NCBI GenBank assembly: GCA_047628735.1
Contig: JBLHVT010000005.1
Coordinates: 1,426 to 65,425, forward strand
DNA: 64,000 nucleotides
Direction: 5' to 3'
Source of the DNA: Glaciecola sp.
Lineage (GTDB): Bacteria; Pseudomonadota; Gammaproteobacteria; Pseudomonadales; Pseudohongiellaceae
Shown here: piece by piece, positions 2,555 through 23,668 of the stretch
How the letters are laid out: each line of letters starts with the position of its first letter
Position numbering within the stretch: position 1 is the stretch's first letter
Notes under the pieces: model-generated
Databases searched by the model: none
Told to the model about the DNA's origin: nothing
Seen by the model: the letters and a program-made list of their open reading frames with translations, nothing else
Position numbers and translations under genes: made by a program

Positions 2555-2720
2555 TGAGCTTGGATGAACTATTTTCGACACTTGAACAGGTGGGTATTCG
2601 TCTTAGTGCCTCTGATGGGCAGTTGAATTTTCGCGCTCCTAAAGGGGCGATGACAACAGAACTGAAAGCGCAAATCAGAGATAGCAAGGCCGATATTCTG
2701 CGTTTTTTTAGCGAACAAGA
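2554..2720 (+). other. TubC-like (beta-hairpin) N-terminal docking domain at the PKS-to-NRPS junction
   Basis: MSLDELFSTLEQVGIRLSASDGQLNFRAPKGAMTTELKAQIRDSKADILRFF matches the L..L...G..L...G..L.F.AP.G.....L...I...K..IL pattern of TubC-type docking domains. The upstream PKS ends in an acidic unstructured tail (..DNIIDDCGEEEGTI) after the ACP. Confidence 0.6.
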
Positions 2721-8700: not shown

Positions 8701-11700
8701 TCCGGACTTATTGGTGTTGAAGAGATTACACAGCTACTTTATCGTTCAGGCGATGTCGGATCTCGTTTGGAAGATGGCTCAATAGTCTTTCTCGGTCGAA
8801 ATGACAATCAAGTTCAGGTTCGGGGGTTTCGGATTGAGCTTGGTGAGATTGAGGCACAGTTAAACCAATTTAGCGAAGTAGAAAAGTCATTTGTAACCGT
8901 TAATTCACAAATAGGAGAAACAAAAGGTACTGCAGATTCTACCGATCTGGTAGCTTATATAGTGCCTGCGAATAAGCAGTTTACTGAGGGGCTATTGAGA
9001 ACTTACTTGGGCGAGCAGTTGCCAGTCTATATGGTGCCTACTTTTATTGTCATGCTTGAGGAATTGCCTCTTACTAGTAACGGAAAGATTGATACTGCTG
9101 CGTTACCTATTCCCGGCTACCCAACAACTGCGCTATCTGATGGGCTAACTAGAGCATTGACTAAAGAGCACGGTGTTCTAGCCAAACTATGGAGTCAAGT
9201 GCTGGGACATAACGTTGGATCGGCGACTGATAATTTTTTCGATATTGGTGGACAAAGCTTGAAAGCTGTTCAATTGTCTCTATTGATTGAGCGAGAGTAC
9301 CAAAAGACCTTCAATTTGCGGAATATTTTTTCAGCACCAACAATCGAACAGCAGTGTGAGTTAATTCGTACTGCACCTCCTTCCTCAGCGGTAATGCAAT
9401 CAGTATCCCATATTCCTATGCTTGATTCGGAGCCAGGCGAAAGTGAGGTTATGCCACTTTCTCCTACTCAACGTCGATTGTGGGCCTTGGAAGAATTGGG
9501 TTTGGCAAGTGGTGTTTATAATATTTATGGCGCGAATGTTTTGATTGGTGACCTCAATGCCGTGGCGTTAGAACAGGCAGTTAATAAGGTGATTCAACGG
9601 CATTCAGTATTGAGAACTGTATTCGTTTCAGAAAATGCCACTGGCGGGCAGAAAATTAGGCCGTTTGTTGACAGCAGTAATTTGGACGCTATTGATTTAG
9701 CCAGCTGTGTTGAGGCAGAAAAGCAAGTTCGCCTCTTTTGTCAAGAGGATGCAGTTGCGCCATTCGATCTTTCAGCCGGACCACTTTATCGATTTAAACT
9801 ATACAAGTTAGATCGCCAGCGACACGTATTCTCAATTAATCTTCATCACTTAATTAGTGACGGTTGGTCACAATCTGTCTTGGTTACTGACTTGATGTCT
9901 TGCTATGAGGATTTTTGCCAGGAGCGTTCTTCATCGCTTAATAAGTTGGAATTACAGTATTACGATTACGCTTGTTGGATTAATCGGCTTAGTGAAGCGG
10001 GGAAATTTGATGGGCACAAGGTTTGGTGGCGTCAACAGTTTGTTGAAGACATTCTACCGCTGACATTGCCCAGTGATAGGTCCCGGCCTAGTATTCAGGA
10101 ATTTTCTGGTGATATCGTACACTTTGAATTGCCCGAAACACTCTCTAAACTGATTCGCCGGACTGCATTAAATGAGCAACAAAGCGTTTACGCTGTTTTG
10201 TTAACGGCGGTCAAAGTGCTATTGCACAGATACAGCGGTCAGAAAGATATTATTGTTGGGAGTGCTGAGGCGGGGCGATCTGATTTAAATCTTTCTGAGC
10301 AGATTGGCTTTTATGCAAATATGTTGGTGTTGAGAGACCAGGTCGAAAGTAATGATTGCTGGCAGGGATTGCTTTGCAAAGTTGGTCATACATTGCTTGA
10401 GGCGTTAGAGCACCGAGATTATCCTTTTGATGAATTGGTAGAAGATCTAGCAATCCCACGAGATATTAGCCGATCACCGTTATTTGATGTGGCGGTTTCC
10501 ATGCTGCCCAGTGCGTCTCTATCTCGCGAACAAGCATCCTATCTATCGCAGTCTATCGACATTCAGCCGTTTGTGGTTTCTCAACCTGTTTCACGATTTG
10601 ATCTAAGCTTTTACTTTACTGATTCGGTAGAAGGGGCCATCAAGGGAGGTATTGAGTTTAGTACAGCATTGTTTGATAGAAGTCGCATTGAGCGAATGGC
10701 GGGGCATTTTACTCAAGCATTAGAGTCGGGCCTGAACAATTTAGGCCAATCTATCAGTGATTTGCGACTGTTAACGGATTTAGAGATCGAAGAAATAAAG
10801 AATGGTTTTAGTAAAGAACCCTCGAAAATTACCGAAGCTGATTTAGTCTACTCGAGACTTGACGAGTCACCATCATCCCTTGGCCCAGTCGAGATATTTT
10901 TACAGCAAGTAAAAATCAACCCTCAGGGTATCGCGGTTCAGTCCCATACAGACAGTCTTAGTTACCAGCAGCTTGATGAGCAGTCCGCAGTATTAGCGGC
11001 CTGGCTAATGAAAATGGTTTTCACCGATAACGATCAATCTAGCTCAGAGACGCCGGAAAAAACAGTGGCTTTACTGTTTACCCGCCACCCTCGAATGGTT
11101 GTTTCCGTCCTTGCTGTCTTGCGAGCAGGCCTTACCTATGTACCCCTCGATTCAACATTTCCAGAATCTCGGTTGTCATTTATATTGGATGACTCCGATA
11201 GCACGATAGTGCTAACTGAATTTTCGCAGCGCGAGCTAGTGCCTAGCAATTATAGGGGGCTTATCTGTGCTGTTGATAGTGAATGGGCATCAATCTCCGA
11301 GATTGCGTCCGAGATGCCAAGCTTATCAATTCAACAATATTATAGTCCGCAGCGACTGGCGTATATTATTTATACCTCGGGATCAACAGGCCAGCCAAAA
11401 GGAGTTTTGATTGAGGGGGGCTCTATTGTTGACCTCGTCAAAAATACAAACTTTATCGATATAACCCCCCAAGACAGGATTCTTCAAGCTGGTTCGCTGG
11501 CTTTCGATGCTTCTACCTTTGAGATATGGGGAGCTATTTTAAATGGGGCGTCATTGTATATGCCCAGTAGGAATGAATTGTTAGATCCAGCTACGTTTGC
11601 TAATAGTTTGTATGTTCAAAGTATCAGCATTACTTTTCTGACAACCAGTTTATTCAATCAACTTTCTGCCTTCGATGCGTCTCTTTTTTCGACTCTTCGA

Positions 11701-14193
11701 GTGTTAATGACTGGCGGCGAGAAAGTCTCGCTCTCCCATGTCAATAGTGTGCAGCAGGCTTGCCCCGATGTTGAGTTATTGCATGTATATGGTCCTACCG
11801 AGAACACAACTTTTTCTACATACTATTGCGTAACTCAAATGCAACTAGGTGATGTTCCGATTGGCTATCCGGTTACTGGCAGCACACTTTATATACTTGA
11901 TCAGCAACTGCAGCTTTGTCCAATTGGTGTTCCTGGAGAGATCTATTTGGGTGGCGGTGGATTGGCGAGAGGCTACTTACGCAGAGACGATTTGACAAGA
12001 GATAGCTTTATAGAGCGGCCAGCTAGCCTCGCTCCTATTCTTGAGCAAAATAGTGAAACGCCAACAAGGCTGTATCGGACAGGCGATACGGCGGTTTGGT
12101 TGGAAGACGGTGCGGTTCAGTATACAGGGCGCATCGATAATCAGGTGAAGATTCGAGGGTTTCGGGTTGAGCCAGAAGAGTTGGAACTGCATTTGAAAGC
12201 GCTTTCTAGTGTTGCAGAAGCCGCGGTTAAAGCCAGGCAGACGACTGCTGGTACATGGGAACTTGTCGCTTGGATCGTCTGGATGTCGGATAACAACGAG
12301 CAGCGAAGTGAATCAATGCAAATAGATTTACAACAGATTAATGATGAGATTGCGTTAAGCCTACCTGCCTATATGTTACCAGCAGCCTGGGGAATACTAG
12401 ATACAATGCCGATGAAATCTACCGGCAAAATCGATCGGGAAAAACTGCCTAAACCAGAATTTATTCTCTCTCGGCGCGTCAATGAACTCGTGACGGCTAA
12501 GAGCGCCAGTGAGTCGCTGCTACTTGGCATCTGGAAAACGGTGCTTGGTTTTAGCGAGATAGGAATAACAGATAACTTCTTCGAGCTCGGTGGTGACTCT
12601 ATCAAAGTTATTCAAGTAATTAGTCGACTGCGAAAAAAAGGCTTCACTTTGGAAGCAAGACGTCTATATGAAGAGCCTACTATAATAGCAGTTGCTCCGT
12701 ATCTAATCGCGGACAAGGAAAAAGTAAATAAAGGTCCCGTCACCGGTTTGGTACGTTTGTCGCCGATCCAAGCTTGGTTCTTTGAACATTTTCAGGGGCC
12801 TATTTCACATTTTAATCAGTCTGTTTTACTTGTCTGTAAGGATCGGATTGATATTGATGTATTGACCGCAGTAATCGAGCATTTGCAGACTTTGCACGAT
12901 TCATTGCGTATGCAGTATCTATCTCAGCCAGATGGCTCTTACCAACAGGTATGCCAGCCTATCGACTTTCCGGTGGCCCTTGATGTAGTGGAAATCGAAA
13001 AGGACAGCGCTGAAGTTGCGCTCGTCGAGATGAACCGGCTCCAAGCTAGTATCAACCTTCAGTCGGGGCCGCTATTCAAGGTTCTGCTTATCCGCTCAGA
13101 TATCGAGGATCGTGTGTTTGTAGTAACTCATCACTTGGTTGTAGACGGTGTCTCATGGCGCTTGCTGCTTGAAGAGCTCGAAGCGCTTTACACAAGCTTA
13201 GCTACTCATGGCGAAGAGTTGCCAGTAATTCACCGCTCTGATTCTTATAGAGACTGGACTGAGTGGCTTTACCATTTTAGTCAAAGCGATGATATCGAGG
13301 CTGCTTGCGATTACTGGAATAGCATAGATCAGCGTGATGATTTTGCAGATTACGTTCTTACTAGCAAAGCCAAGATGGCGGAGGAAAAGTCAGAAGCTAC
13401 TTCGAGAAAAGAAATTGCTGGTAGTCATGGTGGCGAACAGACAATTGCTATTCAGCTCAATACAACTAAAACCCAACAACTAGTCTTAGAATCAGGTAGG
13501 GCCTATCACACGGATGTACAAGACCTGTTGCTGGCGGCATTTTCTTTAGCCCTATACCGATGGCAAGAACTTCAGTCAGTCATGATTACTCTGGAAGGAC
13601 ATGGTAGAGAATCTCTAAGTGATTCACCTATGATTGACAGCACTATTGGTTGGTTTACGTGTTTGTATCCTCACCAATTATATTTTTTCGACGATAAGTC
13701 ATTGTCACTAGATCAATCGTTTGCCGTTTTGATAAAAAGCACCAAGGAATCAATTCGGAAAATTCCTAATAAAGGTTTGAGCTATGGGATTATTCAACAG
13801 TATCCGTTGGCAGGGAGAGAAATAGTTAAACCACCCCCGCTAATCAGTTTCAATTATTTGGGTCAATTCGATCAATTTGATGATGTACCTGATGCTGGGT
13901 TTTTTACCTTTGGAGAGAACGCATCGACCAATATTGATCCAGATTTAACGATGCCGCATGCAGTCGATTTCAATGCAATCATAAACAATAAGCAGTTGGT
14001 AATCTCATTGTCTTATCAGGTGGAGTTATTTGATGCGGTCAATATGCAGTCGCTGCTAAATCATGTTGAGGTCAGCCTAGGCGAGATTTTGAACCACTGT
14101 TTAGAAAAAGAGTCTAGTGAAAACACTGTCAGTGATTTTGAGTTTGCTGATTTGGACGAAGACGATTTTGATAGTGTTCTTAATAATCTATGA
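2554..14193 (+). CDS. Non-ribosomal peptide synthetase, three modules plus epimerase: dock-C-A-T-C-A-T-C-A-T-E
   Basis: Core motifs, in order:
- C1 HHIVTDGWS 3148-3174
- A1 YTSGSTGLPKG 4624-4656
- T1 GGHSL, Ser 5917-5919
- C2 HHIICDEWS 6532-6558
- A2 YTSGSTGQPKG 8008-8040
- T2 GGQSL, Ser 9256-9258
- C3 HHLISDGWS 9844-9870
- A3 YTSGSTGQPKG 11371-11403
- T3 GGDSI, Ser 12598-12600 (the GGDS form is typical upstream of E domains)
- E HHLVVDGVSW 13129-13158
The acidic C-terminal tail DFEFADLDEDDFDSVLNNL resembles a COM donor. Confidence 0.97.
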   Translation: MSLDELFSTLEQVGIRLSASDGQLNFRAPKGAMTTELKAQIRDSKADILRFFSEQESILPIEAADYYALCHAQQRIWMLAQIEQDGTLFNVPLAYVIEGKFDVARFKKSLACLLERHEILRTVFPLIEGEPKQRVTSFSTEFLDAIFSERDVQDLSPSEIENLLTKETRTIFDLEAGPMFKVLIAKESSERQLLLVTLHHIVTDGWSVRLMMQELIAHYKIDQDGDSVLPNLSFQYRDFAAWQNRQIQSGAMAAHQKFWIEQFSEGIPTLELHTDFPRPAVQSFNGAEISFSFDAGLVEAIHQLSRRCSASFYMTLVTLTQTLLLRHSQQESIVVGMPVSGRERSDLDDQLGLYINTMALKTDLPMSLTAIEAIEVVRNNFINAYEYQAYPFDLLVDDLDLDRDLSRSPLFDVMVILQESGATGDSESTLRLSPLPMPSTTSKYDLTFHLEERASELHLSIEYNTDLFSASRIKGLGEQFGDLAKRMVASPDVPLSTFSVLSEMKEGLLLSQLTGNVNNGLYSSSDADSNLESDRNFIASFREQAAKNPRKTAITFSNEMLTYEQLDQQSDSLAAYLQNYFQHNSIELSQCLVGLCVERSTRMIVSLLGVLKSGAAYLPIDPGYPSDRIAYMLKDSGAQLVLSEAELVKVIAQACDANFVCIDSQWESICRTDVSKLERAMDNENLAYVIYTSGSTGLPKGVEISHHALSNFLSSMAREPGLRQQDRLLAVTTICFDIAALELFLPLLQGAEIVLAADSDVVDGQKLIDLVGQHQVTCMQATPVTWKLMLSAGWQGSPRLKVLCGGEALSTQLAGELLPRCDQLWNMYGPTETTIWSLVARITSDSIAQSNGGIVHIGSPIENTTLLVLDRWGKISAPGVPGELCIGGAGLARGYLNRPDLSADKFFLYRLPQNQPLKSQVQENSLQLHSLQLHSLQLHSLQQHRYYRTGDLVCVTEQGQLDFLGRLDNQVKVRGYRIELGEIEAQLGHSDLVSTAVVCAQRDSDGQNYLVAYIQPTSDQLQIDSTKLLSIKAGLSDVLPGYMVPDQFVVLDEFPLTANGKIDRKKLLQHDSEVGIAIVTQSVPYVPADTPLEKVLVDIWQSVLEVETVGLDDNFFELGGHSLKATRLVFRLQKETELALQLLDIFKYPTISKLIENVTGHESIVPIEALTKAAASDENGESLWPLSRAQERLWLMHQLDLSLANANAGAAYNVSTGITLSGPLDITSLQLALTQIIKRHESLRTVFPAQNDGSTMQRVVGYSDLDDSLAFIALQGEQDLTGVVTDFTGQPFDLVHGPLFKVLLVKADEDLEGGKKNQEHTLVLSLHHIICDEWSLRIILQELLMLYHSHSGQSEFALKDLAIQYRDYAHWQNRRFADQSLQQLRGYWLAKISAPPGSLNLPADYPRPDEMDYQGDSVEFNWPLELNSALAALAVRAGQSQFMILTALVKVLLFRYSGETDITIGSPVLGRTHPDLENQVGNYVNMLALRDILSPHESFLVFLDQIKETISGALEHQEYPFDQLVEDLSVPRELDRHPVFDVLISLESQSVDDRLISLPVGKRSIGLQKTTPRISPYSCALPVAKYDLSFNFTETEEGLRASINFRTSLFKRQRIERLAGHLVQLMHSIIRQPETPLRELSLLTEAESQALLSYNQTAADYPKNFSLVDLWSAQVLKNPNTVAVIYRDIQMTYQEIDEAASRLATMLITQGEIGLAEPVVVYLEKSHKVIISFLGVLKAGGCYVPLDPSYPEKRADYILQSSHCRLIIADDIPEFMHSPGRKFFLAIAPSGQSINSGSSVKEEFVERECDPNQTAYVIYTSGSTGQPKGCKVSHCNVVRFIVNDKNIFNFSETDVWLVSHSFSFDFSVLEMYGALLVGGRVVVADREDVVDTSAFRKLLCKHQVTILTQTPAAFTNLVLVEMTVADHGLDEHLRMVILGGERLSFASLQPWISFYPNDKVQIINGYGPTEATVLSTYHALTDAEIMADNGLSIIGGPLPETQVYIFDEFRQQQPIGISGEIWIGGSGVCQGYINQPTLTSSRFVPMAVASGLIGVEEITQLLYRSGDVGSRLEDGSIVFLGRNDNQVQVRGFRIELGEIEAQLNQFSEVEKSFVTVNSQIGETKGTADSTDLVAYIVPANKQFTEGLLRTYLGEQLPVYMVPTFIVMLEELPLTSNGKIDTAALPIPGYPTTALSDGLTRALTKEHGVLAKLWSQVLGHNVGSATDNFFDIGGQSLKAVQLSLLIEREYQKTFNLRNIFSAPTIEQQCELIRTAPPSSAVMQSVSHIPMLDSEPGESEVMPLSPTQRRLWALEELGLASGVYNIYGANVLIGDLNAVALEQAVNKVIQRHSVLRTVFVSENATGGQKIRPFVDSSNLDAIDLASCVEAEKQVRLFCQEDAVAPFDLSAGPLYRFKLYKLDRQRHVFSINLHHLISDGWSQSVLVTDLMSCYEDFCQERSSSLNKLELQYYDYACWINRLSEAGKFDGHKVWWRQQFVEDILPLTLPSDRSRPSIQEFSGDIVHFELPETLSKLIRRTALNEQQSVYAVLLTAVKVLLHRYSGQKDIIVGSAEAGRSDLNLSEQIGFYANMLVLRDQVESNDCWQGLLCKVGHTLLEALEHRDYPFDELVEDLAIPRDISRSPLFDVAVSMLPSASLSREQASYLSQSIDIQPFVVSQPVSRFDLSFYFTDSVEGAIKGGIEFSTALFDRSRIERMAGHFTQALESGLNNLGQSISDLRLLTDLEIEEIKNGFSKEPSKITEADLVYSRLDESPSSLGPVEIFLQQVKINPQGIAVQSHTDSLSYQQLDEQSAVLAAWLMKMVFTDNDQSSSETPEKTVALLFTRHPRMVVSVLAVLRAGLTYVPLDSTFPESRLSFILDDSDSTIVLTEFSQRELVPSNYRGLICAVDSEWASISEIASEMPSLSIQQYYSPQRLAYIIYTSGSTGQPKGVLIEGGSIVDLVKNTNFIDITPQDRILQAGSLAFDASTFEIWGAILNGASLYMPSRNELLDPATFANSLYVQSISITFLTTSLFNQLSAFDASLFSTLRVLMTGGEKVSLSHVNSVQQACPDVELLHVYGPTENTTFSTYYCVTQMQLGDVPIGYPVTGSTLYILDQQLQLCPIGVPGEIYLGGGGLARGYLRRDDLTRDSFIERPASLAPILEQNSETPTRLYRTGDTAVWLEDGAVQYTGRIDNQVKIRGFRVEPEELELHLKALSSVAEAAVKARQTTAGTWELVAWIVWMSDNNEQRSESMQIDLQQINDEIALSLPAYMLPAAWGILDTMPMKSTGKIDREKLPKPEFILSRRVNELVTAKSASESLLLGIWKTVLGFSEIGITDNFFELGGDSIKVIQVISRLRKKGFTLEARRLYEEPTIIAVAPYLIADKEKVNKGPVTGLVRLSPIQAWFFEHFQGPISHFNQSVLLVCKDRIDIDVLTAVIEHLQTLHDSLRMQYLSQPDGSYQQVCQPIDFPVALDVVEIEKDSAEVALVEMNRLQASINLQSGPLFKVLLIRSDIEDRVFVVTHHLVVDGVSWRLLLEELEALYTSLATHGEELPVIHRSDSYRDWTEWLYHFSQSDDIEAACDYWNSIDQRDDFADYVLTSKAKMAEEKSEATSRKEIAGSHGGEQTIAIQLNTTKTQQLVLESGRAYHTDVQDLLLAAFSLALYRWQELQSVMITLEGHGRESLSDSPMIDSTIGWFTCLYPHQLYFFDDKSLSLDQSFAVLIKSTKESIRKIPNKGLSYGIIQQYPLAGREIVKPPPLISFNYLGQFDQFDDVPDAGFFTFGENASTNIDPDLTMPHAVDFNAIINNKQLVISLSYQVELFDAVNMQSLLNHVEVSLGEILNHCLEKESSENTVSDFEFADLDEDDFDSVLNNL
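5325..5387 (+). repeat. 15-bp in-frame tandem repeat, 4 copies plus a partial one, encoding (SLQLH)n inside A domain 1
   Basis: The unit is CAG[C/T]TT[A/G]CAAC[T/A]ACA, with copies at 5325, 5340, 5355 and 5370. The translation is SLQLHSLQLHSLQLHSLQQH. It sits between A6 (GELCIGGAGLARGY) and A7 (YRTGD). Confidence 0.95.
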
Positions 14194-17100
14194 GCGATAA
14201 ATCCGAAATATCTCAAGAAGAGAAGCCTATCAAAAAGTCTGATATAGAAGACATCTTTGGGCTGTCCCCAATGCAGGAAGGAATGCTTTACGAGATGTTA
14301 ATGCAGGCCAACTCTGGTGCCTATCATGTTCAAATGGACTGTAAGCTAACAGGACAGGTCCACGTCGCTCACTTTTTTGCAGCCTGGCGCTTGCTTTGCC
14401 AGCGCCACACTATTTTGCGCAGTGCGTTTATGCATGAAGGTATTGAAAAGCCGGTACAGGTGGTATTGAAGGCACGGGAACCGGAGTGTCAATTTGTAGA
14501 TTTACGCGAAGAATTGAATGCCAGTGACGCTGATGATGGTAAGGGCGACTGTGATATTTCAATTGAGAAGGGCAGTATAATTGAACAATATCTAACAGTG
14601 GATTTGGCAAAAGGTTTTGATTTGCAAAGAGACGCTCTGATGCGATTGTCTTTGTATCAAGTAACAGAAAATGAATTTCGTTTTGTTTGGTGTTTTCCTC
14701 ACCTCCTTATCGATGCTTGGAGTATGGGGCTTATTATAGAAGACCTGACCGTGATGTATCGGCAACTCTACCGTGAGGGTATTGCGAAGAAGTCATTAGC
14801 TCCAGCGGTTCCGTGGAAAAACTATATCAAGTGGTTAAAAGCTCAGAACCCTCAATTAGCCAAAAATTATTGGCAAAATTACTTGAGTGGCTATGAGGAA
14901 GTTGTTGAACTTCCTTGGCGCAATCCAAAGCCCGCAGACTATGTTATCGGAGAGATGACAATCTCTCTTGGCGCTGAGCTATCGGCATCATTAGCGAGTA
15001 TGGCCTCACAGCAGGGCACAACAGTTAATAATGTCTTTCAGGCAGTTTGGGGCTTAGTTCTCTCTCGGTTGACCGGGGAAAGAGATGTCGCCTTTGGCAC
15101 AGTTGTGTCGGGTAGACAGTCTCGGCTATCTGGAATTGAAGATATTGTAGGTCTGTTTATTAATGCGATTCCGGTTCGTGCAGTGCCGTCTAATGATAAA
15201 ACGATCCTTGAGTTGATAACGGAGGTTCAAAACAATACGGTTGCAAGCTTCGACTATCAATACCTGCCCCTTGCGGATATTCAACAAGTTAGTGGATTGG
15301 GCCGTGAACTCTTCGACCATCTTCTAATTTTTGAGAACTACCCTTTAGGGACTGGCGACGAAGACTCTCATGCCGCTGACGATGATCTGCAGTTTTCTGA
15401 TGTAAAGGCTCATGATATTACGCACTATGATTTCAATCTCATTATTATTCCTGGTGATGTATTAGAGATTAGAGTTACCTGGAATGCTGATGCCTTCGAC
15501 TCAGCTGCAATCCAAAATTATCTTGATAGCTATAGACGCGGCTTAGAGTGGTGTAGTGCTAACAAAGAGAAGACAGTCGACCAGTTTTGCGTATTGTCAC
15601 CAGTTGAAAAAAATCAGCTGCACACTGAGTTTAACAATGCCCCGACAGATGCCCCGACAGACAGCCGATCTAATCAAACCCTGCTTGATGTCATTGCACA
15701 GAACTGTGAACTATTCCCGGATGCAATTGCTATTCGTTATTTGCTAGATGAGACTCAGTTAAGCGCACCACTCACACAAGCACTTTCCACAGTAGAGTTA
15801 AGCTATCTCGAGTTAAGTGATATCTCAGACCGAATAGCGGTTTGGTTAATCCAACGGTATGGTGATTGTAATGGCCAGCGAGTCGCGGTTTGTTTAGAAC
15901 GCTCTGAATTGGTGGTGCCAGTATTGCTCGGTATTATGAAAACTGGGGCGGCATGGATTCCTCTTGAACAGGATTGGCCCGCTGAGCGTTTATCCTCGGT
16001 CATTCAAGAATCTTCGCCTCTGATTCTATTGACCTCATCAAATTTAAAGCAGTCAATAACTGAATTACTAACGTGTCCAGTGGTATCAGTGGATGCTTAT
16101 TTTGTTCAAAGCTTACCATTGCTTCGGCCTGGTTCTGAGGAGTTCACACAACTAGCAATGGCGAAACCATGCTTTGAGGATGCCGCCTACATCATATTCA
16201 CGTCGGGATCTACTGGCGAGCCAAAGGGGTGCGTGTTAAGCCATGGCAATTTGGCGCACTATGCCGGATGGGCCGGTCGGCATTACTATACTGCAGTCTC
16301 TGCAGTCTCTGCAGTCTCTGCAGGGAATGATGCCAGCCTTAACAGTGGAAAAATTACCGGCGGTAATATGTGTTTGTTTACCGCCATTAGTTTTGATCTA
16401 ACGATTACTTCTCTTTTTGTCCCTTTAACCTTAGGAAAAATGCTGACTGTTTTTCCTCAACGTGCAGAGTTAACCGACATACTTAGCTACGCGTTTCAGG
16501 GTATCAATGATATTGATGCAATTAAATTAACGCCAAGTCATATTTCTTTGTTAAGAGACTTAGATCTCCAATCAAGTCATATTACGACTGCAATTGTTGG
16601 CGGAGAAGCATTGTTACCAGAACAGGTTGCCGTGTTGCATGGTCTGAATTCTAGTATGCGTGTTGAAAATGAATACGGTCCGACTGAGACAACCGTAGGT
16701 TGTATAGTTCAAGAAGTGTCGCCAGGCAGTGACAAAATACATATTGGTAAACCCATTAGTAATACTTCAGTTTTTATTTTGGATTCTGCATTGCAGCCGG
16801 TTCCTGTTGGGGTGAAAGGAGAAATCTGTATTGCTGGCAGAGGTGTTGCAAGCGGTTATTTCGAGAGGGGGGCGCTAACTCGCGAGAAATTCATTCAATA
16901 TTCACCCAATATAGACAGGTCTGAAAGACTTAGAATGTATAAAACAGGTGATTTGGGCTGTTGGTTGGCCGATGGCACTATTCATCTGTTTGGCAGGCTT
17001 GATGATCAGGTCAAGATACGTGGTCATCGTATTGAACTGGGCGAAATCGAAGCCTGTATCTCGTCCCACAGCAATGTAGCAAATGCAGTAGTACAGTATC

Positions 17101-18947
17101 GACTTAATAACGAAGGGCATGATGAGTTGGTAGCTTGGTATGTGTCAGAGGCCGCTTTACCGAACAGTAGATTGGAATCGGACATTCGAGCTTTTATCGC
17201 AGACAAGTTGCCAAGTTATATGCTGCCTAGTTCGTTGCTTGAAGTAGGTGAAATTTCTCTGACCAGCAATGGTAAAGTCGATAAGGGTTGTCTTGTATGG
17301 CCGGAAAAGCTGTCCGACTCCACCGTTCATCTAAACGAACCGTTGAACGAGGTGCAGAACAATGTCGCGAAAATTTGGCAGCGGGTACTCGGCCTAAACG
17401 AGCCTCCAGGCTTGCAAGACAATTTCTTTCATATTGGCGGTCACAGCTTAAAAGCGATGCAAGTTGTGGCACGATTACATAAAGAGCTGGGGCTGCGAAT
17501 CAAGTTGAATGAGTTTTTTGATAACTCATTGCTCTGTGAATTGACCGGTCTTCTAGAGACAAAGAAAGTCTCGAGTTTCGAGCATATTCCCGTATCTCCT
17601 GTCAGAAAGCATTATCCTCTATCGGATGCCCAGAAGAGTTTATGGCTACTACAGTGGCATGGTACTGGAAAGGCGGGTGCCGCCTACAATATGCCAAAAG
17701 CATTTCTCTACCATACGCCAGTGGACATCGTCAGGCTCAAACGTGCCTTTGCCTTGCTTATTGGCAGGCACGAGAGTTTACGGACAGGTTTCGAAGAAAT
17801 TGCTGGTGTTCCGGTGCAAGTAATCCATAGCAATGTGAAATTGCCGATAGAGATAGTCGACTTGTCGTTTGCTGAGAATTCAATGGAGCGGGCGAGGGAA
17901 GTTGTATCGGAAGATGCTTATGTGCCATTCGATTTGACCAAGCCTCCTTTGATACGATTGGCATTAATTAGGCTTCAGGATAACAAGAGCGTTATATTGC
18001 TTACAGTCAATCACATCATTGGTGATGGCTGGTCGATGAATGTTATTTATCAAGAGATCATGGCACTTTATGAAGCGTGTTGCCAAGACCGTCCATCCCC
18101 ACTTGCCCCACTGAGGGTGCAGTACAAAGATTACACACAGTGGCAGCTTAATCAGGATTTGACTAGTGCAAAGAACTACTGGCAACAAGTGTTAGATGGG
18201 ATTCCCGAAAAAATTGCACTGCCTTACGATTTTCCTGATGCGGACAAGAGCAAATTTGAAGGGGATATCACTAACCTTGTCATTGAGCGATCGACGCGAA
18301 ATGCGCTTTATACTTTCTCACAGCGCTGTAACACGACTATGTCGACGTTAGTTCTGTCAGTGTTTAACCTATTTCTTTTTCAACTGACCAAGCAAGAGGA
18401 TATCGTGATAGGGATGAGCGTGGCTAACCGCAACCATCCTGACCTTGAAAACCTGATCGGTTTTTTTGTGAATATTCTACCTATTCGCATTGTTATGGAT
18501 AACGACATTGAGTTTGAAGATCTTGTCGACCAAGTGGCGAAAAAAACTCAAGGTGCTATGCAGCATCAGGAGTTTCCCTTTGATCGGATGGTCGAAATGG
18601 TAAACCCCGACAGAAATAGCGAACATCAGCCAGTTCTAAATGTCGTTTATGGTTTTCAGAACTTTTCTGATGTCAGTCTTGAGTTGGACAAAGCGCAAGG
18701 CAGTGTAGCCAAAGAAGGCCGCGTAATTTCTACACCGGAAACGTCAGATGAAGACTTTGAGTCTTTCGATTTACCCTTTAAAACAGCAAAATTTGATCTT
18801 ACTCTTTTTGTTTTGGATGATGGTGAACGGCTACACTTAGACCTCGAATACAATTCCAGTCTTTTTCTTGAAAAATCAGCATTGCGGCAGCTAAGAATGC
18901 TGGGAGCTATTATGCAACAAATTGCTAAGAGTAGTGGGTATGAATAA
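14190..18947 (+). CDS. Non-ribosomal peptide synthetase: C-A-T-C, with a condensation domain at the C-terminus
   Basis: The ATGA overlap with the upstream ORF indicates coupling. The N-terminus LSPMQEGMLYE is typical of C domains that follow an E domain. Core motifs, in order:
- C4 PHLLIDAWS 14697-14723
- A4 FTSGSTGEPKG 16197-16229
- T4 GGHSL, Ser 17445-17447
- C5 NHIIGDGWS 18009-18035. Confidence 0.97.
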   Translation: MSDKSEISQEEKPIKKSDIEDIFGLSPMQEGMLYEMLMQANSGAYHVQMDCKLTGQVHVAHFFAAWRLLCQRHTILRSAFMHEGIEKPVQVVLKAREPECQFVDLREELNASDADDGKGDCDISIEKGSIIEQYLTVDLAKGFDLQRDALMRLSLYQVTENEFRFVWCFPHLLIDAWSMGLIIEDLTVMYRQLYREGIAKKSLAPAVPWKNYIKWLKAQNPQLAKNYWQNYLSGYEEVVELPWRNPKPADYVIGEMTISLGAELSASLASMASQQGTTVNNVFQAVWGLVLSRLTGERDVAFGTVVSGRQSRLSGIEDIVGLFINAIPVRAVPSNDKTILELITEVQNNTVASFDYQYLPLADIQQVSGLGRELFDHLLIFENYPLGTGDEDSHAADDDLQFSDVKAHDITHYDFNLIIIPGDVLEIRVTWNADAFDSAAIQNYLDSYRRGLEWCSANKEKTVDQFCVLSPVEKNQLHTEFNNAPTDAPTDSRSNQTLLDVIAQNCELFPDAIAIRYLLDETQLSAPLTQALSTVELSYLELSDISDRIAVWLIQRYGDCNGQRVAVCLERSELVVPVLLGIMKTGAAWIPLEQDWPAERLSSVIQESSPLILLTSSNLKQSITELLTCPVVSVDAYFVQSLPLLRPGSEEFTQLAMAKPCFEDAAYIIFTSGSTGEPKGCVLSHGNLAHYAGWAGRHYYTAVSAVSAVSAGNDASLNSGKITGGNMCLFTAISFDLTITSLFVPLTLGKMLTVFPQRAELTDILSYAFQGINDIDAIKLTPSHISLLRDLDLQSSHITTAIVGGEALLPEQVAVLHGLNSSMRVENEYGPTETTVGCIVQEVSPGSDKIHIGKPISNTSVFILDSALQPVPVGVKGEICIAGRGVASGYFERGALTREKFIQYSPNIDRSERLRMYKTGDLGCWLADGTIHLFGRLDDQVKIRGHRIELGEIEACISSHSNVANAVVQYRLNNEGHDELVAWYVSEAALPNSRLESDIRAFIADKLPSYMLPSSLLEVGEISLTSNGKVDKGCLVWPEKLSDSTVHLNEPLNEVQNNVAKIWQRVLGLNEPPGLQDNFFHIGGHSLKAMQVVARLHKELGLRIKLNEFFDNSLLCELTGLLETKKVSSFEHIPVSPVRKHYPLSDAQKSLWLLQWHGTGKAGAAYNMPKAFLYHTPVDIVRLKRAFALLIGRHESLRTGFEEIAGVPVQVIHSNVKLPIEIVDLSFAENSMERAREVVSEDAYVPFDLTKPPLIRLALIRLQDNKSVILLTVNHIIGDGWSMNVIYQEIMALYEACCQDRPSPLAPLRVQYKDYTQWQLNQDLTSAKNYWQQVLDGIPEKIALPYDFPDADKSKFEGDITNLVIERSTRNALYTFSQRCNTTMSTLVLSVFNLFLFQLTKQEDIVIGMSVANRNHPDLENLIGFFVNILPIRIVMDNDIEFEDLVDQVAKKTQGAMQHQEFPFDRMVEMVNPDRNSEHQPVLNVVYGFQNFSDVSLELDKAQGSVAKEGRVISTPETSDEDFESFDLPFKTAKFDLTLFVLDDGERLHLDLEYNSSLFLEKSALRQLRMLGAIMQQIAKSSGYE
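15639..15662 (+). repeat. 12-bp in-frame tandem duplication encoding (APTD)2 in the C-A linker
   Basis: gccccgacagat at 15639-15650 is followed directly by gccccgacagac at 15651-15662. Confidence 0.85.
16292..16323 (+). repeat. 9-bp in-frame tandem repeat, about 3.5 copies, encoding (AVS)n inside A domain 4
   Basis: The unit tgcagtctc occurs at 16292, 16301 and 16310, followed by a partial tgcag. The translation is TAVSAVSAVSAG. It sits between A3 (FTSGSTGEPKG) and A4 (FDLTITS). Confidence 0.95.
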
Positions 18948-18980
18948 GTTTGCAGCGGGATTTCAAAAGGAGTTGAAAAA

Positions 18981-21900
18981 TTGAAGCTAGGTGATTTTAG
19001 CGTATTGGATGAATTGCAGGATCAGGATAGTTTTCAAGATGTCGTGAATCGTTTTAATGAAACCGCGACTGACTATCCCAGCGCCAGTACAGTGAACGAG
19101 ATATTCCAACATCGGGTTGATGAAAGTCCTGACGCTATTGCGGTGAAAGATCCTGATAGATTTTACACGTATGCTGAATTGGATCGGCGTTCCAATAAAC
19201 TATCTCACTACCTTCTGTCAAGAACCATAGCGCCAGAATCTTTTGTGGCAATAATGATGGACGGAAGTTGTGATGCAACTGTGGCTATATTAGGTGTACT
19301 AAAAGCTGGGGCCGCCTACTTTTCAATGAGCGCAGATTTACCCATCGAGCGTGCTAAGTATATGCTGGACGATTGCGCCGCGCCTGTCCTTATTTCTTCG
19401 AGGGGACATATTAAGAAAATGAATAGGCTGCAATGGGAGTGTGCTGCGTTAGAAGAAATCTTATGCATTGATAGTGACTGTATTCATGCAGAGTCTGAAG
19501 AAGATACAGAAATGATGAACCCAGAAATTTGGCGCTTCATCGCTGATCAAGCGTTTGATGATATCTCTGGGGGCGGATGGAAAAGTATCTATACGGGGGA
19601 GTGGATAAGCCGTGAGGTTATGGACGCCTATGGTGATAGCATTGAAACGAAACTTACCCCGTTTTTTACCAAGGATACTCGAGTATTAGAGATCGGCTGC
19701 GCTAGTGGTATCAGCATGTTCAGATTGGCACCCAAATGTGGATTCTATATGGGAACTGATCTGTCGCCTGGTATTATTGACTGGTGTGCTCAGAAAGCGG
19801 AGCAAACTAAGCAAAACAATATTCACTTGGAATGCTTAGCTGCACATGAGATTGACCAATTGGAACAGGGTGATTTCGATGTGGTTATCATTAATAGCGT
19901 CGTGGAGCTTTTTAGTGGCCACAACTATCTTCGAGACGTTGTTAATAAAATAGTCGGTAAAATGGGGCCGAAGGGGGTTCTCTTTTTAGGAACTCTTTGG
20001 GACCAAGACAGCAAAGGCAAGTTTGCTCAATCTCTCGTTGATTTTAAAAGGCAGCATGGTAGTTCTGCGCACACCAAAATAGATCTAGACGACGACTTAT
20101 TTATTTCTCGAGATTACGTGGAGGATTTAACGTTAGACATTGATGAGTTAGTCAGCGTAGAATTTTCTCGAATGGCTGGTGATTCACTCCATGAGTTGTC
20201 CGCATACAGTTTTGATGCTCTGCTTTGTGTCGATAAAGTTAACCGAGCCAACACCGCGGACCGAAAGCGCCATAAAAAACAAACCGACTGGACCGAAATC
20301 AAGCGCTTTTCGCCTGAGCGACTTGCACCAATCGGTGATGGAAACTCGCTTGCCTATTTGATATACACCTCTGGTACTACTGGTAAGCCCAAAGGCGTTT
20401 TAGTTGAGCATCATTCGGTTAGTCGCTTGGTAATTAACACGAACTATTTTTCATTAGATTCTAGTGACCGCGTACTTAAAACGAGCTCCATGTCGTTTGA
20501 TGCGTCTACCTTAGAGATTTGGGGGCCGTTGTTAAACGGTGCAAGTGTTTGCTATGGCGCAGAGAAGGACATACTCGACCTTAAGCGTCTGTATAGCTTG
20601 GTGAAGGATGAAGAAATCACCTGTATGTTTTTCACGACTAGCTTGTTAAATGTAGTTGCCCGTTTAGCACCTGAAATATTTGGGCATTTAAGAACTCTTA
20701 TAACGGGTGGTGAAAAAGCGTCGGTTGAAACCTTGACCCAGTTAAAATCCCTATTTCCTGACTTACGAGTAATTAATGGCTATGGACCCACGGAAAACAC
20801 TACGTTCACTACTTTTTTTGAGGTGACCGACAGTCAAGCGATGACGGTTCCAATTGGTAAACCAATCTCGAATTCTACCGCTTATGTCTTAGATGATTTA
20901 GAGAGGCCTCTTCCCATTGGGGTGGTGGGAGAGTTATATGCCGGTGGAGATGGGGTTGCTCGAGGCTATTTAAATGCGCCTGATAGTACCGCTGCTAGCT
21001 TTGTGTATTGCGAGTTTTTGAAAGACCAGCGTTTGTATCGCACAGGAGATAGAGCGCGATGGCTTGAAGATGGCAATCTTGAATTTTTAGGCCGAATTGA
21101 TGATCAGGTAAAAGTGAGGGGGTTTCGTATTGAGCCTGCTGACATAGAGAAAAATATTAGTGAACACCCTGATGTTCAAGAAGTGGTTGTGATAACGCGG
21201 CAAGTAGAGGAGGGTCTCGAGTTGCTTGCCTATGTTACCGGTCAGGACAATTTGTCGATTGTGGATGTTAAGCATTTCGTTTCTCATAAGTTACCTAATT
21301 ACATGGTGCCAAGCCATATCATAAAGCTGGCGCAGTTTCCGCTAAATCGAAATGGTAAAGTAGACATCAAACAATTGCCGGCGCCAGAAAATTTTCGAGC
21401 AGGCCATTCATCCGACGTAAAGTTAGTGTTAGAGGCCGAAAAGCAGATGGCTGGTATCTGGCAAGAGATTCTTAGCGACTCTGCTGAGCAGCAAAAGCCG
21501 ATCCAAGGTGAGGTATTGGCGCAAACACAGTTTGGCGCAAATGATAACTTCTTCGACTTAGGGGGGCATAGCTTACGAGCGACTAAATTGTTGGCAATGA
21601 TATATAACGGGATGGGAGTATCGTTACCATTGTCTGCAGTTTTTGAAGCAAAGACCTTGCGGGAATTAACAGGGAAAGTATTAGATTCACTTGAGTTTGG
21701 TGAGGAGTATGCTGATAGCCCCATGGTGCAACTCAATCAAGCTGATGGCCCTAACTTGTTTGCCTTCCCTCCTGGCACGGGAGACGTATTAGGTTACATA
21801 CCATTGGCTGAAAAACTTGAAAACTGTCGGCTATTTGCTTTTAACTTTATCGAAAACGAGAATCGCGATACGCTGTATGCTGACTTAATTGAGGAAAAGC

Positions 21901-22418
21901 AGCCACAAGGTGAAATTACTTTGTTTGGATATTCAGCGGGCGGTAATTTAGCTTGTCATGTGGCAAATGCGCTAGAGCTACGCGGGAGGTTGGTTAAAGA
22001 TATAATTATGGTGGATTCTTCTCGAAAGATGGCTGCCTACCAATTTGATCCAAATGAAACAAAGCGAATCACTGAAGATTTTTTGAATCACGAGACCATC
22101 AAGCCTTATGTGTCGAGTCCATTGCTAAAGGACAAAGTAGTACGCAAGATTTCAAGCTATTATAATTACATCGAAGAAACCGTAGACCTACTTCTTTTGA
22201 ATGCGAATCTGCATGTGATACTCGCGGAAGCAGGACAGGATAAATTTCATGATAATGAAGGTAAGCTGATTATGCATCTTTCCGCCTGGGCACAAGCGAC
22301 TAATGGTTGCTATCGAACTTATCAAGGGACTGGTTTGCATAATGATATGTTGTATCAGAAGCCGTTGGAGGCTAATGCAGAAATTATCAGCCGTATTGTG
22401 AGGGAGTCATCGCTATGA
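18981..22418 (+). CDS. Non-ribosomal peptide synthetase: A (interrupted by a methyltransferase domain)-T-TE, with no C domain
   Basis: The start is TTG with AAGGAG 9 nt upstream (18966-18971). Core motifs, in order:
- A2-like LKAGAAYFSMSADLP
- NRPS-type M domain: GGWKSIYTGEWISREVMDAY, then VLEIGCASG with LEIGCASG at 19686-19709
- A3 YTSGTTGKPKG 20364-20396
- A5 NGYGPTENT
- A7 YRTGD
- T GGHSL, Ser 21570-21572
- TE GYSAGG, Ser 21933-21935, with downstream Asp (MVDSS) and His (GLHNDM). Confidence 0.95.
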   Translation: MKLGDFSVLDELQDQDSFQDVVNRFNETATDYPSASTVNEIFQHRVDESPDAIAVKDPDRFYTYAELDRRSNKLSHYLLSRTIAPESFVAIMMDGSCDATVAILGVLKAGAAYFSMSADLPIERAKYMLDDCAAPVLISSRGHIKKMNRLQWECAALEEILCIDSDCIHAESEEDTEMMNPEIWRFIADQAFDDISGGGWKSIYTGEWISREVMDAYGDSIETKLTPFFTKDTRVLEIGCASGISMFRLAPKCGFYMGTDLSPGIIDWCAQKAEQTKQNNIHLECLAAHEIDQLEQGDFDVVIINSVVELFSGHNYLRDVVNKIVGKMGPKGVLFLGTLWDQDSKGKFAQSLVDFKRQHGSSAHTKIDLDDDLFISRDYVEDLTLDIDELVSVEFSRMAGDSLHELSAYSFDALLCVDKVNRANTADRKRHKKQTDWTEIKRFSPERLAPIGDGNSLAYLIYTSGTTGKPKGVLVEHHSVSRLVINTNYFSLDSSDRVLKTSSMSFDASTLEIWGPLLNGASVCYGAEKDILDLKRLYSLVKDEEITCMFFTTSLLNVVARLAPEIFGHLRTLITGGEKASVETLTQLKSLFPDLRVINGYGPTENTTFTTFFEVTDSQAMTVPIGKPISNSTAYVLDDLERPLPIGVVGELYAGGDGVARGYLNAPDSTAASFVYCEFLKDQRLYRTGDRARWLEDGNLEFLGRIDDQVKVRGFRIEPADIEKNISEHPDVQEVVVITRQVEEGLELLAYVTGQDNLSIVDVKHFVSHKLPNYMVPSHIIKLAQFPLNRNGKVDIKQLPAPENFRAGHSSDVKLVLEAEKQMAGIWQEILSDSAEQQKPIQGEVLAQTQFGANDNFFDLGGHSLRATKLLAMIYNGMGVSLPLSAVFEAKTLRELTGKVLDSLEFGEEYADSPMVQLNQADGPNLFAFPPGTGDVLGYIPLAEKLENCRLFAFNFIENENRDTLYADLIEEKQPQGEITLFGYSAGGNLACHVANALELRGRLVKDIIMVDSSRKMAAYQFDPNETKRITEDFLNHETIKPYVSSPLLKDKVVRKISSYYNYIEETVDLLLLNANLHVILAEAGQDKFHDNEGKLIMHLSAWAQATNGCYRTYQGTGLHNDMLYQKPLEANAEIISRIVRESSL
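19430..20345 (+). other. NRPS-type methyltransferase domain inserted between A-domain core motifs A2 and A3 (approximate boundaries)
   Basis: The whole MT motif set lies downstream of LKAGAAYFSMSADLPIERAKYML (A2) and upstream of LAYLIYTSGTTGKPKG (A3). Confidence 0.8.
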
Positions 22419-23668
22419 ACATATTCGATTCAACTGAATCAAATGTAAGGTCATATTGTCGATCTTTCCCTAAGGTTTTTGAGTCTGCCTCTGGAGCCGA
22501 ACTTATCGATGAAGAAGGGAATTTTTATATCGACTTTTTTGCTGGTGCAGGCTCACTAAACTATGGCCATAATAATCCGATAATGACCGAAGCCCTGATT
22601 AGCTACTTACAATCTGGGGGCGTCGTTCATGGGTTGGATATGGCGACCACTGCCAAACGTGATTTTCTAGAAACATTTAAGTCGGTAATTTTAGATCCAC
22701 GAGGATTAGATTATAAGGTTCAGTTTACCGGGCCCACAGGCACCAATGCCGTAGAGGCGGCTTTAAAGCTAGCACGAAAAATAAAGCAGCGATCTAATGT
22801 GATTTCCTTTACAAATGCCTTTCACGGCTTAACGTCAGGTGCTTTGGCTGTCACTGGAAGCCAGAATTATCGTAATGAAGCTTACGTTGATCGCCGCAAT
22901 GTAACCTTTATGCCCTATGATGGCTACATGGGCGATGGTGTGAACACATTGGATTACGTTCGTAAGTTGCTCATCGATAAAAGTAGTGGTATCGATCTTC
23001 CTGCAGCAGTGATTGTGGAATTAATTCAGGCTGAAGGCGGCGTTAACGTTGCGTGCCCGCAGTGGGTTAGAGAGCTACGACTTCTTTGCAATGAATTTGA
23101 TATGTTGCTGATTGTTGATGATATTCAAGTTGGCTGTGGTCGTAGTGGATGCTTTTTTAGCCATGAAGAGGCAGGCATAAAACCTGATATGATCGCCCTG
23201 TCAAAATCCATCAGTGGTTTTGGGCTGCCGATGTCTTTATTGTTATTGAAGCCAGAATTTGATCAATGGGAAAGCGGAGAACATACAGGAACTTTTCGCG
23301 GAAATAACCTCGCCTTCGTTACAGCCAAAATAGCATTGGATTATTGGCGGACATCTCAGTTCGCTGACGAGATCCATGAAAAATCACTTTTAGTCCAAGA
23401 GGCCTTGCAAGATCTTCAAAGTAGATTCCCAAAGACTATTAGGGCTATCAAAGGTCGGGGGATGATACGCGGTCTAGAATTTTGGCAACCGCATGTGGCG
23501 CAATCGCTGGTAAAAACCGCTTTTTTGAATGGATTAATCATTGAGCTGTGCGGGGCCGAACAAAATGTTTTAAAATTATTGCCACCATTAATTATCGAGA
23601 ATCAGCTATTGATTAAGGGCATTGGCGTTATCGATAGCGCCTTGAAAGCGATCAATTCGGAGGTTTAA
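22415..23668 (+). CDS. Diaminobutyrate-2-oxoglutarate transaminase (EctB/Dat/PvdH family, PLP-dependent)
   Basis: It is collinear along its whole length with EctB as I remember it. Shared motifs are ESNVRSYCRSFP, YIDFFAGAGSLNYGHNNP, GLDYKVQFTGPTGTNAVEAALKLAR, VIVE.IQAEGG, DDIQVGCGRSG, ALSKSISG (PLP Lys) and GTFRGNNLAF. An ATGA overlap links it to the TE-containing NRPS. Confidence 0.93.
   Translation: MNIFDSTESNVRSYCRSFPKVFESASGAELIDEEGNFYIDFFAGAGSLNYGHNNPIMTEALISYLQSGGVVHGLDMATTAKRDFLETFKSVILDPRGLDYKVQFTGPTGTNAVEAALKLARKIKQRSNVISFTNAFHGLTSGALAVTGSQNYRNEAYVDRRNVTFMPYDGYMGDGVNTLDYVRKLLIDKSSGIDLPAAVIVELIQAEGGVNVACPQWVRELRLLCNEFDMLLIVDDIQVGCGRSGCFFSHEEAGIKPDMIALSKSISGFGLPMSLLLLKPEFDQWESGEHTGTFRGNNLAFVTAKIALDYWRTSQFADEIHEKSLLVQEALQDLQSRFPKTIRAIKGRGMIRGLEFWQPHVAQSLVKTAFLNGLIIELCGAEQNVLKLLPPLIIENQLLIKGIGVIDSALKAINSEV

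Follow-up and report, generated by a model that had tools for sequence, protein, structure and literature searches.

A terminal nonribosomal peptide synthetase module divided between its condensation domain and a methyltransferase-interrupted adenylation domain in a Glaciecola sp. contig

Gene layout at the end of the assembly line

We analysed a 64,000-nucleotide stretch of DNA from Glaciecola sp. (assembly GCA_047628735.1, contig JBLHVT010000005.1, positions 1,426 to 65,425 of the forward strand; hereafter the window), with attention to the point at which its nonribosomal peptide synthetase (NRPS) assembly line ends. Three NRPS genes lie here in one direction, tightly packed behind the tail of a polyketide synthase (PKS), and the terminal module is divided between the last two of them (Table 1). 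The first of this pair encodes P0002, whose final condensation (C) domain, C5, carries the motif NHIIGDGWS and has no adenylation (A) and thiolation (T) partner in cis. The next open reading frame (ORF), encoding P0001, opens directly with an A domain and continues into T and thioesterase (TE) domains, an arrangement that Pfam assignments confirm as the original prediction had described it. The A domain is interrupted by a methyltransferase (M) domain, and P0001 keeps all ten A motifs, as well as the serines of T (GGHSL) and TE (GYSAGG). From sequence comparison, we consider it probable that P0001 is a separately translated A(M)-T-TE termination subunit belonging to family 4 of the interrupted A domains and acting by the four-step route set out below.

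Table 1. Features of the PKS-NRPS locus, in window coordinates
Feature	Position	Strand	Basis or remark
PKS tail, methyltransferase (MT)-ketoreductase (KR)-acyl carrier protein (ACP)	2-2554		upstream of the NRPS genes
3879-aa NRPS; N-terminal TubC_N, 4 C-type, 3 A and 3 T domains	2554-14193		Pfam
P0002, 1585 aa, C-A-T-C	14190-18947	+	Pfam
C5, last Condensation domain of P0002, residues 1139-1585	17604..18944	+	Pfam residues 1139-1580, profile 2-435/456
TAA stop of the C-ended P0002	18945..18947	+	sequence read
Non-coding 33-nt spacer; Shine-Dalgarno aaggag at 18967-18972	18948..18980	+	sequence read
P0001, 1145 aa, A-T-TE, TTG start	18981-22418	+	Pfam
TTG start and complete C-A linker (M)KLGDFSVLDELQDQDSFQDVVNRFNETATDY, on the A protein	18981..19073	+	homologue alignment
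A domain, N-terminal piece with a1 (YTYAELD) and a2 (LKAGAAYFSMSADLP)	19074..19424	+	residues 32-148 vs LgrA 201-317; first Pfam AMP-binding stretch
Predicted type V (backbone N-) methyltransferase insert, residues 149-449	19425..20327	+	Pfam, 5WMM match, motifs
A domain, remainder, a3-a10, including code DALFIGGTFK	20328..21380	+	alignment, motifs
Thiolation domain, GGHSL, serine = residue 864	21483..21680	+	Pfam PP-binding residues 849-897
Thioesterase domain, GYSAGG, to gene end	21753..22418	+	Pfam Thioesterase residues 925-1138
Class-III (diaminobutyrate-type) aminotransferase gene	22415..23668	+	Pfam Aminotran_3

The specificity codes upstream of the split module read Gly (DILQLGMIWK), then DFLTIGGVLK (A2), an Ile-like DAFFMGVTFK followed by an epimerization (E) domain, and Asn (DLTKIGEVGK; A4, window position 16197). 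Downstream, the start of the aminotransferase gene overlaps the stop of the P0001 gene; members of its protein cluster are named diaminobutyrate-2-oxoglutarate transaminase, and a convergent beta-barrel porin gene bounds the locus. As a separate observation, C5 departs from HHxxxDG in having Asn in place of the first His (NHIIGDGWS, 18009-18035), as do the C domains at L002 and L003, the loci of two close relatives; other C domains preceding split A(M) genes almost all have His at this position, HHI(I/V)GDGWS, the sole further exception being L034 (NHIVCDGWS).

The methyltransferase insert and its type

The interruption of the A domain is evident from several directions. Pfam divides it into two AMP-binding stretches with matches to Methyltransf_12/25/11/31 between them (residues 230-335), and in alignment with LgrA, SrfA-C, GrsA and other solved NRPSs residues 32-148 correspond to a1-a2 and residues from 450 onward to a3-a10. 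The spacing from a2 to a3 is 301 residues in P0001 as against ~22 in uninterrupted A domains, a net insert of ~279 aa, and the a8-a9 region (GRIDDQVKVRGFRIE...LPNYMVP) is continuous. The alignment, the Pfam matches, the motifs and the ratio of nonsynonymous to synonymous differences (pN/pS) thus bear out the proposal that an intact M domain lies between a2 and a3. In the a2 motif itself (LKAGAAYFSMSADLP, 19305-19349), Ser and Met stand where the common form AY(L/V)P(I/L)D has Pro and Ile/Leu; the relative P0006 (locus L003) reads AYFPISADLP and distant homologues are canonical. The aliphatic pocket reported earlier was recovered when we re-derived the specificity code with GrsA numbering: DALFIGGTFK is Val/Ile-like, and codes of the Val/Ile type recur in 106 stand-alone homologues described below (DAFWLGGTFK in 51, DAFFLGVTFK in 24).

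Two families of interrupted A domains carry their insert at a2-a3, namely family 3 (TioN, MarQ), in which a type IV M domain yields S-methyl-Cys, and family 4, in which a type V M domain methylates the backbone nitrogen (PMC8341866, PMC11355689). Family 4 is represented by module 5 of TtbB and had 188 members in 2020, with inserts of 270 +/- 6 aa; no O-methyltransferase is known at this site (Lundy et al. 2020, PMC8341866). KtzH of kutzneride biosynthesis, which the original prediction had named as an a2-a3 example, is interrupted at a8-a9 (PMC8341866, PMC11355689), and the M domains known at a2-a3 are S-methylating type IV and backbone N-methylating type V domains. P0001 resembles KtzH in having an embedded MT, but its insert lies at a2-a3 and shares no motif similarity with the type II O-methyltransferase of KtzH, which acts on Ser, so the protein falls outside family 2a (KtzH-type, type II at a8-a9).

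The insert was typed by published diagnostic motifs and a solved structure, that of TioS, rather than by a tree of named MT domains. The M-domain motifs of PMC8341866 (Table 1 of that paper) were coded as regular expressions and run on the insert, giving exact type V matches for motifs i (SGGGWKSIY), ii (VLEIGCASG) and iv (DVVIINSVVELFSGHNYL). All three type IV motifs (VLExGxGxG, D....AS..QF(F/L)P...Y and xELxxR(Y/F)D) failed to match in the insert, which keeps the Asn of NSV at the position that type IV replaces by Ala. The same search of the insert found no type I motif v, and the ~120-aa C-terminal extension of type I is likewise absent. When the insert alone was compared with solved structures, its best match was 5WMM, the TioS backbone N-methyltransferase (E=6e-16), in an alignment spanning all shared motifs. 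By these motifs, and by the pN/pS given below, the insert is an intact, selected M domain of the N-methylating type (type V), for which methyl transfer is predicted, and the interrupted A domain is a further member of the catalogued family 4.

Comparison with characterised or classified systems is consistent with this assignment. P0001 shares with family 4 and TtbB module 5 the a2-a3 position, the insert length (~280 vs 270 +/- 6 aa), the motifs GGW.S.Y, VLEIG.A.G, the NSV..F.G.NY block and EL..Y.F, and the lack of type I motif v and of the ~120-aa extension, and backbone N-methylation is predicted for it as for that family. The two differ in that TtbB module 5 has a Tyr pocket in an A domain lying inside a multimodular protein, whereas the Val/Ile-pocket A domain of P0001 opens a separate protein. 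TioS(A4a-M4-A4b), seen in 5WMM, is an N-methyltransferase of the class I Rossmann type whose substrate is aminoacyl-S-T; it has GW.SSY, LEIG.GSG, GTD.S and NSV.QYF in common with P0001, but its type I insert lies between a8 and a9 and is ~120 aa longer. Since type V domains at a2-a3 N-methylate the backbone, the puzzle raised in the original prediction, of an aliphatic pocket offering no O or S to methylate, disappears: the pocket stands, the paradox does not, and an aliphatic residue is what N-methylation would predict. The novelty suggested for the insertion is also lost, N-methyltransferase insertions at a2-a3 being common (family 4, n=188).

The nearest experimental precedent is TtcC, a four-domain subunit encoded separately as terminal module 6 of thalassospiramide biosynthesis in Thalassospira; it harbours the only MT, at the N-terminus of A6 (bioRxiv 10.1101/560987). 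Deletion of ttcC abolished production, which a copy provided in trans from a Tn7 site restored; with the MT-dead variant TtcC-G234D the product was desmethyl and the additional methyl on the valine upstream was missing, the MT being required for the terminal N-methyl group (bioRxiv 10.1101/560987). Compared by description, both TtcC and P0001 are stand-alone proteins with an MT near the A-domain N-terminus followed by T and TE, and the SAM (S-adenosylmethionine)-motif glycine is G234 in TtcC and G239 in P0001. The position of G234 indicates that TtcC, too, starts directly with an A domain; P0001 has an A start, a SAM motif near 234 (G239), a T-TE end and a C-ended subunit before it. TtcC loads Tyr, in contrast to the Val/Ile-type pocket of P0001. 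TtcB may end in a C domain, a suggestion that is ours rather than the paper's, and the C/A break of TtcC as such is not discussed there (bioRxiv 10.1101/560987).

The side activity of the TtcC methyltransferase on the valine of the upstream module raises an alternative for P0001, in which the stand-alone subunit acts beyond its own module, either methylating the upstream T-bound Asn as well or serving several assembly lines. We consider this unlikely, as the operon that holds the P0001 gene offers it just one cognate C-ended partner, and a DNA search of the window's own genome (a bin of 3.2 Mb in 177 contigs) found no second copy of the junction.

A second alternative is that the M domain is a catalytically silent structural relic, the residue being incorporated unmethylated. 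A2-a3 interrupted A domains were at first proposed to be inactive (PMC8341866), and two motifs of the P0001 insert are off by one residue each. The evidence on the other side makes this less likely still: VLEIGCASG and NSV are intact, motif iii keeps its acidic residue (GTDLS), the M motifs are conserved across the 106 stand-alone homologues, and the homologous MT of TtcC is active. In the comparison of the window with two relatives, moreover, the pN/pS of the insert is 0.105-0.115, no higher than that of the A core or T-TE, all domains of the split module being under purifying selection. We looked for the degenerate M domain that would undermine a functional insertion, and found instead an intact SAM motif and a pN/pS of ~0.11.

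Methylation of a side chain, through O or S, is a third alternative and in our view a very improbable one. It draws on TioN and MarQ, whose S-methylating type IV domains occupy the same a2-a3 site with inserts of similar size and form a sister group of type V. TioN and MarQ, however, S-methylate Cys, and none of their three motifs is present in P0001; the Ala of AS(T/V/A)xQF is Asn here, and the pocket, in P0001 as in ~100 homologues, is of the Val/Ile type and shows no signature for Cys, Ser or Thr. P0001 therefore does not belong with the TioN-type family 3, and an O-methyltransferase at a2-a3 would lack a known parallel (PMC8341866).

The break between C5 and the A domain

The ORFs of P0002 and P0001 share a frame, with one TAA and 11 sense codons between them, which made it necessary to rule out a nonsense mutation. 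Two close metagenomic relatives with the same gene order, P0004 (89% identity) and P0006 (85%), keep the stop at the same place (TAA in the window, TAG in L002, TAA in L003), and the L003 spacer holds a second in-frame stop. The spacer is 33 nt in all three and retains 24/33 (L002) and 16/33 (L003) positions identical to the window, with well-conserved coding DNA on its flanks; the purine-rich Shine-Dalgarno sequence and the TTG start are kept in both relatives. A scan of the junction found no terminator, and no promoter-like site on the + strand. A DNA search across 40 related genomes, 24 of them congeneric, yielded no copy of the junction, indicating that the cluster is not genus-wide, and comparisons were therefore drawn from metagenome contigs.

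The wider family places the break at a precise position. Of the 120 top-ranked clusters in a collection of 5.8 billion proteins, ~105 share the A(M)-T-TE Pfam pattern of P0001 and represent stand-alone proteins 1125-1180 aa long. These stand-alone homologues, more than 100 in number, span at least seven phyla, with named sources that include Parabeggiatoa, Omnitrophota, Desulfobacterales, Colwellia, Opitutaceae, Acanthopleuribacter and Vicinamibacterales. The A core is preceded by 29-31 residues in 98 of 106 such proteins; their N-termini share the pattern M-K-L-(S/G)-D-F-x-L-L-D (logo values M100, K97, L88, D83, F96), and the TTG start of P0001 aligns with their Met1. A one-genome-per-species scan gave 163 genomes with this M type, from which 79 loci were fetched. 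In ~30 of the 79 the A(M) gene starts just after a gene ending in a C domain, in all three relative frames and with gaps of 6-160 nt; in other loci C and A(M) are fused in one ORF. The fused linker reads ...SVIKNPKVKLKEIELLSQEEKQQLLxEFNDT..., and in split pairs the last helix of the C domain is followed by the stop and then by MKLSDFNLLD...FNxT.... In fused C-A(M) relatives the counterpart of the P0001 linker, homologous to it, reads ...NPKVKLKEIELLS...FNDT, and this comparison of fused and split forms places the break exactly where the C-A linker begins, at its first residue. P0002 ends within ~5 residues of the end of the C-domain profile and P0001 begins at the first linker residue; the A protein thus retains the entire linker, and no additional sequence is present on either side.

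These comparative data (the stops of the relatives, the frames of the distant loci and the position in the linker) led us to reject a recent nonsense mutation or read-through. That the break is such a mutation, an assembly error or programmed read-through, leaving a single polypeptide or a dead pathway, is barely credible even with one frame and a single TAA between the ORFs, given a stop in three independent assemblies, the second L003 stop, a spacer that evolves as non-coding DNA around a preserved Shine-Dalgarno sequence and TTG, distant homologues cut at the same linker residue in other frames, the predominance of stand-alone proteins among the best clusters, and purifying selection on every domain. 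No frameshift or hidden small ORF that would fuse P0002 and P0001 was found, and the earlier statement that the terminal module is split between two proteins is upheld by the stop, spacer, Shine-Dalgarno sequence and TTG kept in relatives.

The lack of extra sequence on either side implies that there are no docking domains. Pfam found no docking or communication-mediating (COM) family at either terminus of the P0002/P0001 junction, and TubC_N, found at the N-terminus of the 3879-aa protein, has no match at this junction; the termini are the end of a C domain and the start of a linker. In this respect the original prediction, which had seen no COM or docking helices there, was correct. Our literature search on natural C/A splits or A-MT-T-TE proteins found nothing directly relevant. 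Of the bleomycin proteins BlmIV and BlmIII, the former probably ends in a Cy domain and the latter probably starts with an A domain.

The history of the split was approached with FastTree only, using the N-terminal 470 residues of A(M) and a midpoint root. One side of that root comprises 28 split and four 'fused' rows (Shimodaira-Hasegawa-like support 94), and two of the four, L013 and L069, are open-frame artefacts of high GC content, judged by their upstream peptides. Identity to C5 is 36-46% among C domains in front of split A(M) genes and 27-33% among those in front of fused ones, a pattern which suggests that C domain and A(M)-T-TE protein move as a pair. TE domains occur almost only in the split class, which marks the split form as a termination module.

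Other arrangements were also seen among the loci. In a third layout, an upstream KS...T-C protein (KS, ketosynthase) ends in a full C domain and the next protein opens with a C-terminal half C (Pfam 190-456), which looks like a truncated C remnant, followed by a type V interrupted A domain; examples are L021 (1537-5214 and 5299-13197; Acetivibrio mesophilus), L018-L022, L027-L030, L050, L053, L059 and others. At L005 (7765-9990; Acanthopleuribacter pedis), and similarly at L009 and L010, the stand-alone A(M)-T-TE gene is separated from the C-ended NRPS by the gene of a B12-binding radical-SAM protein; the L005 protein has a partial Condensation-like C-terminal piece and could be a trans-acting C-methylase of the tethered residue.

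The aminotransferase gene is a recurrent companion of the split subunit. A homologue with 54-62% identity follows A(M)-T-TE in nine distant loci, including those of Parabeggiatoa, Opitutales, Latescibacterota and Vicinamibacterales. In one metagenomic protein, P0085 (1548 aa), A(M)-T-TE is fused to a class-III aminotransferase (Aminotran_3 residues 1156-1544), a fusion that indicates a functional link between the two. At distant split loci the module before C/A(M) has either an Asn code or the polymyxin-type diaminobutyrate (Dab) code DVGEIGSIDK, and the module before that is Ile/Val-type. All seven such loci with a Dab or Dab-like penultimate code also have the aminotransferase; cassettes with the aminotransferase usually show DVGEIGSIDK at the penultimate A domain (L085, L086, L012-L014, L017, L026). 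In the window, L002, L003 and L023 it is present together with the Asn code DLTKIGEVGK. In such Asn-code loci either Dab enters at A2 (DFLTIGGVLK) or the transaminase is a leftover of a Dab-to-Asn module change. We know of no aminotransferase neighbour in the thalassospiramide pathway.

A proposed route and its wider meaning

In the route that we propose for P0001 as a termination subunit, the A domain would first adenylate a Val/Ile-like aliphatic L-amino acid and load its own T domain. The M domain would then use SAM to methylate the T-bound residue at its alpha-amino nitrogen, methylation at this stage being the order established for interrupted A domains (PMC11355689). C5 would join the upstream polyketide-Gly-X-(D-)Ile-Asn chain to the N-methyl residue across a non-covalent C:A interface, and the TE would free the product by hydrolysis or cyclisation. 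The substrate is suggested by the pocket code, and the order of steps follows the biochemistry of TioS, TioN and TtcC.

The interface may form in trans without docking domains because the A protein retains the whole linker, from the conserved MKLxDF (invariant K2/F6), together with the native C:A contact surface. This suggestion also draws on the engineered type S NRPSs of Bozhueyuek et al. 2021: an assembly line severed by design within the C-A linker retained residual activity when a single zipper half was present, which speaks for an intrinsic C:A affinity (PMC8362031). Those systems resemble P0002/P0001 in their C-A cut and trans C:A interface (PMC8362031). Their cut, W]-[NATE, needs SYNZIPs, whereas the natural cut of P0001 lies ~24 residues earlier, at the linker start, with no added docking element. 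The modelling of C5 with A(MT) that the original prediction had called for was carried out with AlphaFold2 (AF2) on a single read-through chain, C5-spacer-A(M). Every domain is confident in this model (mean predicted local distance difference test score (pLDDT) 92.4, predicted template modelling score (pTM) 0.77; pLDDT 92-98 in the insert), confidence is low at the spacer and first linker residues, and the last C5 helix lies at the very C-terminus of P0002. The best Foldseek matches are C-A didomains (Txo1/2, SrfA-C, LgrA, EntF). The model is compatible with a C-A platform and is no demonstration of one, and we count it neither for nor against the interface.

We acknowledge that several points weigh against the route as a whole. 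Superposition of the AF2 model on the C-A didomains is loose (TM 0.45-0.64, root-mean-square deviation ~10 Å), and the interface is accordingly not demonstrated by it, however confident the individual domains. Motif iii of the insert (FYMGTDLS) has M where V/Y/L are listed and motif vi (HELSAYSF) has H where N/F/P/S are listed, each a one-residue miss, and a2 is slightly unusual in reading AYFSMSADLP, not AYLPID. In addition, our proposal that TtcC may be the characterised counterpart of P0001 rests on the wording of the TtcC paper together with one residue number.

The layout described here is real and conserved, but its class was catalogued in 2020 and it is close to the characterised thalassospiramide terminal subunit; it is not a new kind of system. 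What appears to have gone unremarked is the spread and the positional exactness of the docking-free C/A break, and its travelling with a conserved C-terminal peptide logic. A more tentative extension, which we regard as plausible though somewhat short of probable, is that a C domain followed across the break by A(type V M)-T-TE, often with a diaminobutyrate-type aminotransferase, constitutes an ancient, horizontally mobile cassette of a (lipo)peptide family found across phyla, whose products would end in Ile/Val - Asn/Dab - N-Me-Val/Ile, and that the break at the linker start, marked by MKLxDF, is a natural docking-free split point. If true, this would be a natural split of the sort that NRPS engineers now imitate only with synthetic zippers, and the more than 100 natural docking-free C/A breaks at one linker residue would form a data set for the design of split assembly lines. 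For annotation, an a2-a3 M domain beside an aliphatic pocket may be read as backbone N-methylation rather than as a missing O- or S-acceptor. In terms of discovery, an N-methyl-Val/Ile C-terminus is predicted for the polyketide-pentapeptide of an uncultured marine member of the Pseudohongiellaceae, and its cluster is tied to a widespread and unstudied family.

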